Under the pieces are notes generated by a model. It was given only the letters and a program-made list of their open reading frames with translations. It was not told the origin of the DNA and did not search any database. DNA of 8,933 nucleotides, from the IMG/VR virus record IMGVR_UViG_2703718803_000022; one strand, written 5' to 3'. Position numbers and translations under genes: made by a program. Shown one piece after another: positions 1-414 of this stretch. The number at the start of each line of letters is the position of its first letter. Positions within the stretch are counted from its first letter, which is position 1. The DNA is from a virus. Taxonomy: Duplodnaviria; Heunggongvirae; Uroviricota; Caudoviricetes.

Positions 1-165
1 CTCATGCTGGCGAACCCAGACACGCAGAGTCTCCGGCGTACAGCCAATCTTTGGGGCAATGGAACAAATTGCCGCCCACTGTGAGTCATATTCATCCTGA
101 CTTTCCAGAACCATACGAATCGCCCGCTGACGGACTTCGGGGGAAAAACGAGTATTTTTAGTCAT
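1..165 (-). CDS. IS3-family transposase OrfA, N-terminal 55 codons (partial, continues beyond window)
   Basis: Start codon is the complement of 163-165, preceded by an AGGTAAACAGG Shine-Dalgarno region on the minus strand. Open to the window edge with no stop. N-terminal HTH-type transposase sequence. Confidence 0.75.
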
Positions 166-219
166 CCTGTTTACCTCTTTCTCAGGGAGTTTAGTCTCCA
201 GGATTTCCGGGGCGGTTCA
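1..219 (-). mobile_element. Left end of an IS3-family insertion sequence (IS629/IS1203-like), truncated by the window edge
   Basis: Minus-strand reading from 165 down to 1 gives [55 protein letters not shown], which matches my recollection of the OrfA N-terminus of IS629-type elements. The element terminus reads 5'-TGAACCGCCCCGGAAATCCTGGAGACTAAACTCCC on the minus strand and ends at position 219, typical of an IS3-family inverted repeat. Confidence 0.75.
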
Positions 220-225
220 GTCAAA

Positions 226-414
226 ATGATTCCGGTAGAACTGGCGAAAACCCCAGAGTTAAGTCGATTAAAAAGAGAGTATCACATTGCTGAGGCTCGT
301 TACTGGCGTAAAGCGGGAGATAAATCAAAGAAACAACTTTGCTTATGGCAGGCACAAAGAGAGCGCATGAATGAGCGCGAATTTCTTTCCTCCCCATCCG
401 AATTACCATTCTGA
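226..414 (+). CDS. Small hypothetical protein (62 aa), possibly the 3' remnant of a phage gene interrupted by the IS; C-terminus ends ...SPSELPF
   Basis: ORF begins 7 bp after the IS terminus. It ends 8 bp before the next gene, whose RBS (GAGGTGA) overlaps its stop. No strong RBS of its own. Confidence 0.4.
   Translation: MIPVELAKTPELSRLKREYHIAEARYWRKAGDKSKKQLCLWQAQRERMNEREFLSSPSELPF

Follow-up and report, generated by a model that had tools for sequence, protein, structure and literature searches.

An 8,933-nucleotide stretch of a Caudoviricetes record (IMG/VR IMGVR_UViG_2703718803_000022; the whole stretch is called the window hereafter) begins inside an insertion sequence (IS) and continues into the early region of a lambdoid prophage that ends at the host gene wrbA. 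The junction is probably explained by a strain-specific transposition of IS629 into the N-dependent pL operon of this wrbA prophage, at the point where kil meets a downstream gene of 62 codons (orf62). By comparison with IS-free relatives, we located the breakpoint, identified the element and the gene that it interrupts, and established that orf62 is complete and has lost its Shine-Dalgarno (SD) sequence. The insertion is an ordinary strain-specific polymorphism and a new instance of a known event; what is notable about it is the precision with which it hits a 4-bp gene overlap and an SD sequence, together with the absence of the allele from the collections searched.

IS629 and the kil-orf62 overlap

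The initial annotation had placed the terminus of an IS3-family, IS629-like element at position 219, and this proved exact. The reverse complement of window 1-219 is identical in a scripted comparison (219/219 bases) to bases 1-219 of the IS629 copy of VT2-Sakai, which served as our reference (L006 1601-2910; AP000422.1 24900-26209; 1310 bp with 25-bp terminal repeats). A megablast search against phage records likewise found window 1-219 to be 100% identical to IS629/IS1203v in VT2-Sakai, Stx2-converting phage 1717, phage 2851 and about 100 others. Window position 219 is IS629 base 1, and the boundary between IS and phage is unambiguous because the IS has A at 219 where the IS-free prophage arm has G. 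The window thus holds the left end of the element on the minus strand (positions 1-219; bases 1-219 of 1310); the rest, where orfB (the DDE/rve transposase gene) and the programmed -1 frameshift would lie, falls beyond the window start. Its left terminal inverted repeat (IRL), TGAACCGCCCCGGAAATCCTGGAGA on the minus strand, occupies 195-219, corresponds to the repeat_region annotated at L006 1601-1625 and starts with TGAACCGCCCCGG, as an IS629 end does; the outer 13 bases match those of the right repeat (IRR), as do 9 more. Codons 1-55 of orfA occupy 165 to 1 on the minus strand, where the window edge cuts the gene. They encode a helix-turn-helix (HTH) protein (PF01527 HTH_Tnp_1, E 4.7e-7) that begins at IS base 55, as does the orfA coding sequence of VT2-Sakai. 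The transposase is read in the direction opposite to pL transcription.

To the right of the element, window 220-8933 (8714 bases) is 100% identical, without gaps, to the IS-free, wrbA-side prophage arm of CFSAN027346 (locus L005, from 5001 onward), which we refer to as the IS-free twin. The same arm is found at 100% identity in NIID080884, 6629, 6883, 12689 and other complete Escherichia coli genomes, and the window arm is 99.9% identical to that of O26:H11 strain 11368. The O26:H11-type genomes that carry this arm at wrbA all lack the IS at this site. The wrbA phage of O26:H11 sequence type (ST) 21 is the G3 Stx1a phage; clade C2, of which 11368 is the representative, carries it stably, and it gives no phage-induction-dependent Stx1 production (PMC10042803). 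The arm in the window matches that of this G3 Stx1a phage group of O26:H11 ST21 clade C2.

Five IS-free relatives reveal the empty site, which reads ...AGA AAA TGG AGG TCA AAA TGA TTC CGG... across the insertion point; the junction, ...AGAAAATGGAG|GTCAAAATGATT..., is found in TL-2011a, Stx1a_PV728, Stx2_EH0505, O26 11368 and CFSAN027346. Gene order in the IS-free genomes is cIII, kil (37 aa), orf62 and a Sak4-like ATPase gene, with kil and orf62 joined by an ATGA overlap, and PGAP annotates at the empty site three small genes in succession, namely cIII (46 aa), kil (37 aa) and the 62-aa hypothetical protein WP_000613346.1. In the IS-free twin, cIII matches PF02061 (E 3e-30), and the gene directly after it belongs to the kil family by its match to PF06301 Lambda_Kil (E 8.4e-22, residues 2-32 of 37). 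This kil lies in the empty-site twins at L005 4897-5010 and L004 9047-9160 (37 aa), and ATGCAATATGCCATTGCAGG is a stretch within the cIII/kil region. The TGA of kil shares ATGA with the ATG of the 62-aa gene, giving a 4-bp overlap and no intergenic DNA. IS629 entered 6 bases 5' of the orf62 ATG, within codon 35 of the 37-codon kil, and split the GGAGG SD sequence of orf62, which stands 5 nt ahead of the ATG, between its bases 4 and 5.

Judged by this alignment with the empty site, the gene cut by IS629 is kil, not orf62, and only its last three codons are affected. The earlier proposal that the IS had cut into a phage gene or operon thus stands as regards the early pL operon and the presence of an interrupted gene, but the gene is not the 62-codon open reading frame (ORF) that had been suggested. 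That proposal was to be doubted if IS-free phages showed the ORF as a complete, independent gene and the IS target as intergenic DNA; the first is what we found, while the target proved to be not intergenic but the overlap of kil with orf62.

What the window retains of kil is its 3' end, the last 10 nt (220-229, plus strand), G TCA AAA TGA, comprising the third base of R35, S36, K37 and the stop codon; the remainder lies across the IS. The first phage bases beyond the element (220-223, plus strand) would be the right copy of a target-site duplication, either GTC (3 bp) or GTCA (4 bp). Target duplications of IS629 measure 3-4 bp (PMC3271280), and the VT2-Sakai copy is flanked by a 4-bp duplication, CTTT. 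Under simple insertion, the kil sequence expected at the far IS flank is ...AAATGGAGGTC(A). We rebuilt the filled locus computationally from the twin and the reference IS629. With a 4-bp duplication (GTCA), kil would end ...AGG TCA TGA and encode 36 aa, with K37 alone lost; with a 3-bp duplication (GTC), residues 1-36 of Kil would be followed by a 12-residue tail, EPPRFSWRVFYL, from the IS right end, for a total of 48 aa. Kil would be nearly unchanged in either case, because the Pfam core (residues 2-32) stays intact with either duplication. For the last residues this expectation follows from how far the Pfam core reaches; truncations are not covered by the published work on lambda Kil (PMC3961180).

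By contrast with the reading of the 62-codon ORF as a gene remnant, orf62 (226-414, plus strand) is a complete 62-aa gene of the HK620 hkaM/phrog_1723 family, present here without its native SD sequence and its ATGA coupling to kil. The identical ATG and 62 codons have been annotated independently in TL-2011a (AEW24530.1), RefSeq (WP_000613346.1) and HK620 (hkaM). Residues 2-59 match phrog_1723 over profile positions 1-58 of 58 (E 1.6e-33), which places orf62 within that family, and tblastn found the full-length gene beside kil, at 60-98% identity, in HK620, HK629, phage L, ES18, epsilon34 and g341c. An exact-protein look-up gave 10 genomic contexts, in all of which kil (37 aa) and orf62 (62 aa) share 4 bp and orf62 is followed by a Sak4-like ATPase or by a Rad52-type annealing protein and SSB. 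The same kil-ATGA-orf62 arrangement occurs in HK620, ES18 and phage L. All 10 contexts are empty-site: an adjoining transposase was sought and none was found in them, and one context (L008) has IS629 elsewhere in the operon.

That the IS truncated a longer phage gene and left the ORF as its 3' remnant is very improbable given these data. This reading could draw on an in-frame ATG that lies 12 nt upstream at the empty site (L005 4995), where it opens a 66-aa ORF, and which the IS would have removed. However, this ATG has an SD pairing of -0.2 kcal/mol, as against -10.0 kcal/mol at the annotated start; the 62-codon start appears in the three independent annotations and the 62-aa form in the gene calls of all 10 contexts, and the phrog_1723 profile begins at residue 2 of that form.

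Several further observations concern orf62 itself. The hkaM family is extremely widespread, with 14,308 blocks listing it in the contig index, and in loci L007-L016 orf62 always lies between kil and a gene for a single-strand annealing protein, Sak4-like or Rad52-like. Judging from this gene neighbourhood, orf62 encodes a small, conserved protein that accompanies phage recombination modules. Searches of Pfam and NCBIfam returned no family for it. Its position and the 62-aa length of P22 kil led us to compare it with P22, and identity with P22 Arf (47 aa) or P22 Kil (62 aa) was rejected, BLASTP giving no alignment at E <= 100 for either. The label 'recombinase' carried by phrog_1723 and by ES18 gene 50 is an unverified annotation and was not used.

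Translation and transcription beyond the element

As had been noted from the window, the 62-codon ORF begins 7 bp past the IS terminus without a ribosome-binding site (RBS) of its own: we found no canonical SD sequence for orf62 within the window, and the RBS is missing because IS629 separates the native GGAGG from the ATG. More generally, what looks like a missing RBS can reflect an IS that has parted the SD sequence from the start codon. At the empty site, the SD sequence of orf62 is GGAGGT at optimal spacing, with a pairing energy of -10.0 kcal/mol. Within the 20 nt 5' of orf62 in the window, the sequence that pairs best with the anti-SD is a bulged GGGGCGG contributed by the IS repeat (-7.2 kcal/mol), which lies farther from the ATG, and the predicted 80-nt fold around the start deepens from -12.9 kcal/mol (empty) to -25.6 kcal/mol (filled). 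Translation of orf62 is likely lower after insertion, since the SD sequence and the termination-reinitiation coupling to kil are lost and the start region can pair with the IS repeat. The Sak4-like gene that follows has its own SD sequence, GAGGTG at 413-418 (-6.9 kcal/mol).

The features of an N-antiterminated pL operon, namely pL, N and intrinsic terminators ahead of the distal genes, were found in the IS-free twin only. There, a pL-like promoter (TTGCCA-17-TAAAGT, L005 3381-3409) is followed by an intact 127-aa N with a strong SD sequence (L005 3658-4041; PF25694, E 2.1e-15), by a 156-aa gene located after N and upstream of cIII, and by two terminator-like hairpins with T-runs directly before cIII (L005 4675-4694 and 4715-4734). 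HK620 has curated terminators tL1, tL2A and tL2B at corresponding positions and more terminators within kil and hkaM, tL2A-D being curated. Because two terminators precede cIII, polymerase arriving at kil would, on the lambda model, already be N-modified. At the position of the N ORF (L005 3658-4041), the RefSeq/PGAP call is merely a 69-bp 'regulator, incomplete' pseudogene; this under-call is an annotation artefact and could mislead judgement on whether these prophages have N.

Within the element, no terminator-like hairpin was predicted on the pL-sense strand of IS629. Lambda N-modified polymerase reportedly overrides both intrinsic and Rho-dependent terminators, including IS polarity, a finding said to go back to Adhya, Gottesman and de Crombrugghe in 1974. 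A simple insertion would therefore leave the downstream genes, which have their own RBSs, transcribed from pL upon induction, because the polymerase would already be N-modified and would cross an IS strand that has no predicted intrinsic terminator. The proposed outcome is that Kil would be almost untouched, translation of orf62 reduced and polarity modest. The situation resembles classical IS polarity in lambda pL units in that transcription from a lambdoid pL, with N and nutL presumably upstream, has to pass through an IS. It differs in the type of N (here H-19B/933W-like, PF25694), in the IS and in the prophage, and read-through of IS629 would be expected by analogy. The insertion is probably near neutral, because the operon is repressed in the lysogen, as is typical of IS629 copies in prophages.

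It had also been suggested that the IS may supply outward-reading promoter activity, in which case its end would constitutively drive orf62 and the accessory operon in the lysogen. Outward or hybrid promoters are indeed known for several IS families. However, no sigma-70-like promoter was found on either strand, and hence none on the plus strand, in window 1-1200 with the standard scan or in 1-300 at a lenient 8/12. In the IS3 family, moreover, IRL carries the inward -10 of the junction promoter and the outward -35 lies in IRR; the IS end toward orf62 is IRL, while IRR points away, toward N. An outward promoter at the IS end is unlikely, and we see next to no likelihood of constitutive expression driven from it. 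The IS end would add no outward promoter to the operon.

The far side of the element and comparable insertions

Several observations weigh against simple transposition with mild consequences. The IS-derived GGGGCGG pairs about as strongly with the anti-SD as the Sak4-like gene's own SD sequence does (-7.2 vs. -6.9 kcal/mol), and given this pairing the drop in orf62 translation may be small. On its pL-sense strand, the IS is rich in C (393 C vs. 313 G, with a C/G of at least 1.5 in many 78-nt windows) and essentially untranslated, holding short ORFs only; this strand could be a good Rho substrate if antitermination were incomplete, and unmodified polymerase would probably be halted in the IS by Rho. 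Finally, the window contains a single IS junction; what lies across the element (the second junction, the duplication and an unbroken connection to kil, cIII, N and pL) is assumed from the twins.

This last point bears on the earlier suggestion that the IS may have separated the downstream operon from its promoter and antitermination. Such a separation is unlikely if the insertion is simple, as pL, nutL and N then lie upstream; it would hold if the IS629 end were the endpoint of a deletion. In that case, an IS-mediated deletion, an inversion or IS-IS recombination would have severed the operon at 423-8358 from pL and antitermination, leaving a decaying, excision-defective prophage arm. The window does start inside the IS, with the far flank out of view, and of 47 IS629 sites in O157 genomes just 21 had matching duplications (PMC3271280). 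Precedents also exist in an IS-mediated 18-kb deletion in an O26 Stx1a phage (PMC10042803) and in CP088028.1 (L008), where an IS629 in the same operon is accompanied by the loss of about 345 bp of the neighbouring gene. Yet all 8714 phage and host bases to the right of the element are in place and match, at 100% identity, twins that look functional, the breakpoint falls exactly at the IS terminus, as expected of fresh transposition, and no positive sign of rearrangement was found in the window. We therefore regard a rearrangement as unlikely, although it retains some weight. A lower probability still attaches to a scenario in which the antisense, C-rich IS is strongly polar even on N-modified transcription, or in which pL and N are deleted, and in which xis, int and the recombination module are silent on induction.

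No copy of the exact filled junction turned up in 5426 complete E. coli genomes, 227 of which contain the empty site (coverage of at least 80%), in 50,697 phage records, or in the GTDB species-representative contigs, IMG/VR or JGI metagenome contigs. Its absence from all five searched collections could be taken to mean that assembly created a false junction by chimerically joining a contig end to a repeat, and the window does begin within a multicopy repeat, the usual break point of short-read assemblies. However, the join is exactly at base 1 of the IS629 repeat, with no bases lost or extra, an outcome typical of transposition and rare for a random chimera, and we find an artefact scarcely credible. 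Stx2a phage Stx2_3417 (LC616060.1), the only apparent case of the same junction among the phage records, was rejected: its IS629-like element is a different one, about 375 bp away from the cIII region. That element (L018 1341-3025) is 95.6% identical to IS629 and lies just upstream of cIII; it is accompanied by about 375 bp that match neither IS629 nor the twin, and the edge of the locus carries another IS629 fragment, 99% identical.

Among the IS elements of enterohaemorrhagic E. coli (EHEC), IS629 is the most abundant, and 62% of its copies lie in prophages (PMC3271280). Like the one studied here, the copy in VT2-Sakai/Sp5 is IS629 (100% over 219 bases) within a lambdoid Stx-type prophage, the element making 3-4 bp duplications and choosing its targets without sequence specificity, but it lies in the late region near the lysis genes, whereas the IS629 of the window lies at the kil/orf62 junction of the pL operon. 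Closer in position is the IS629 of CP088028.1 (99.9% identical), located between N and cIII of the same cIII-kil-orf62-Sak4 module. It differs in lying about 0.5 kb farther upstream, in the 156-aa gene, with its transposase co-directional with pL and with about 345 bp of flanking phage DNA absent beside it. In O26:H11 00_3305, another IS3-family element, IS600, entered the same operon, but both the IS and the target differ, as it splits the DUF551 gene mid-gene. In O26:H11 B44, an IS600 upstream of q in the Stx1a prophage has been proposed to affect induction-dependent Stx1 production (PMC10042803).

The prophage arm and what the insertion means

The plus strand of the window runs in the direction of the leftward early operon, in the order orf62 to xis, int and wrbA. 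The Sak4/SSB module named in the initial annotation was confirmed downstream of orf62 by profile matches. A Sak4-like ssDNA-annealing ATPase (423-1103, plus strand; phrog_2872, E 1.5e-108; PF13479 AAA_24) is coupled through ATGA to an SSB-like protein (1100-1687, plus strand; phrog_743, E 8.7e-67), and these are followed by the Abc2 anti-RecBCD protein (1711-2007, plus strand; phrog_656, E 1.9e-44), which PGAP names 'phage anti-RecBCD protein'. Other accessory genes of the same operon (2161-6665, plus strand) encode DUF2737, Ead/Ea22-like, DUF551, DUF1627 and DUF4222 proteins and several proteins assigned to no family. The distal end of the operon is formed by the excisionase (6696-6995, plus strand) and the tyrosine integrase (7024-8358, plus strand), which together are covered by matches to PF06806, PF12167 and PF00589; the wrbA attachment junction then follows, and the identical sequence has been annotated by PGAP. 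The end of the integrase gene, with its stop codon, shares 4 bp with the beginning of a 192-aa ORF (8355-8933) that PGAP calls wrbA, and the window ends at the stop codon of this ORF. Evidently, the prophage junction gives the interrupted wrbA a new 5' end.

Some genes of the arm show features of their own. A perfect 9-bp tandem repeat, CAGTGCAGC, present in four copies (5871-5906), encodes VQP repeats within the DUF1627 gene (5678-6049), which is 372 nt long in the window and in CFSAN027346 and 363 nt long in O26 11368. One 9-bp unit appears to account for the arm lengths of 8714 and 8705 bp, and on this evidence the repeat would be a small prophage variable-number tandem repeat. Positions 4583-5494 hold an uninterrupted 303-aa ORF with a C-terminal DUF551 domain, where PGAP, on identical sequence, has annotated two 'incomplete' DUF551 pseudogene fragments (L005 9364-9807 and 10012-10275). 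The first approximately 45 residues of this ORF (TIQHWRETYGPGSNVVLPAEEAEELARIALASL...) are nearly identical to the start of the ORF at 3408-3866, which suggests a recombinant or fused gene. It is this gene that the IS600 of O26 00_3305 interrupts. A 207-aa ORF at 3963-4586 has a GTG start, an internal Met (opening MALTHRELCQIAYKFLKRNGF...) and no match in Pfam; on the identical sequence, PGAP gives only a 179-bp 'frameshifted hypothetical protein' (L005 8852-9030). In the IS-free twin, the interval between cI and pL (L005 1809-3150), the position of rexAB in lambda, holds a HigB-family toxin, an HTH protein and a 134-aa hypothetical protein. This HigB/HTH cargo is toxin-antitoxin-like and presumably co-transcribed with the repressor.

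The importance of the insertion is mainly practical, and it opens no new question. IS-mediated prophage decay is well documented in EHEC. The junction is a strain-specific insertion marker that could serve IS629-based subtyping of an O26:H11-like lineage. If the IS is polar, expression of the recombination genes, the accessory genes, xis and int would be lower on induction, which would help to fix the prophage in the chromosome. Should the downstream genes in fact be silent on induction, the result would be a Stx-type prophage locked in wrbA, excision-defective and stably inherited, that is, an IS-driven domestication of a toxin prophage.
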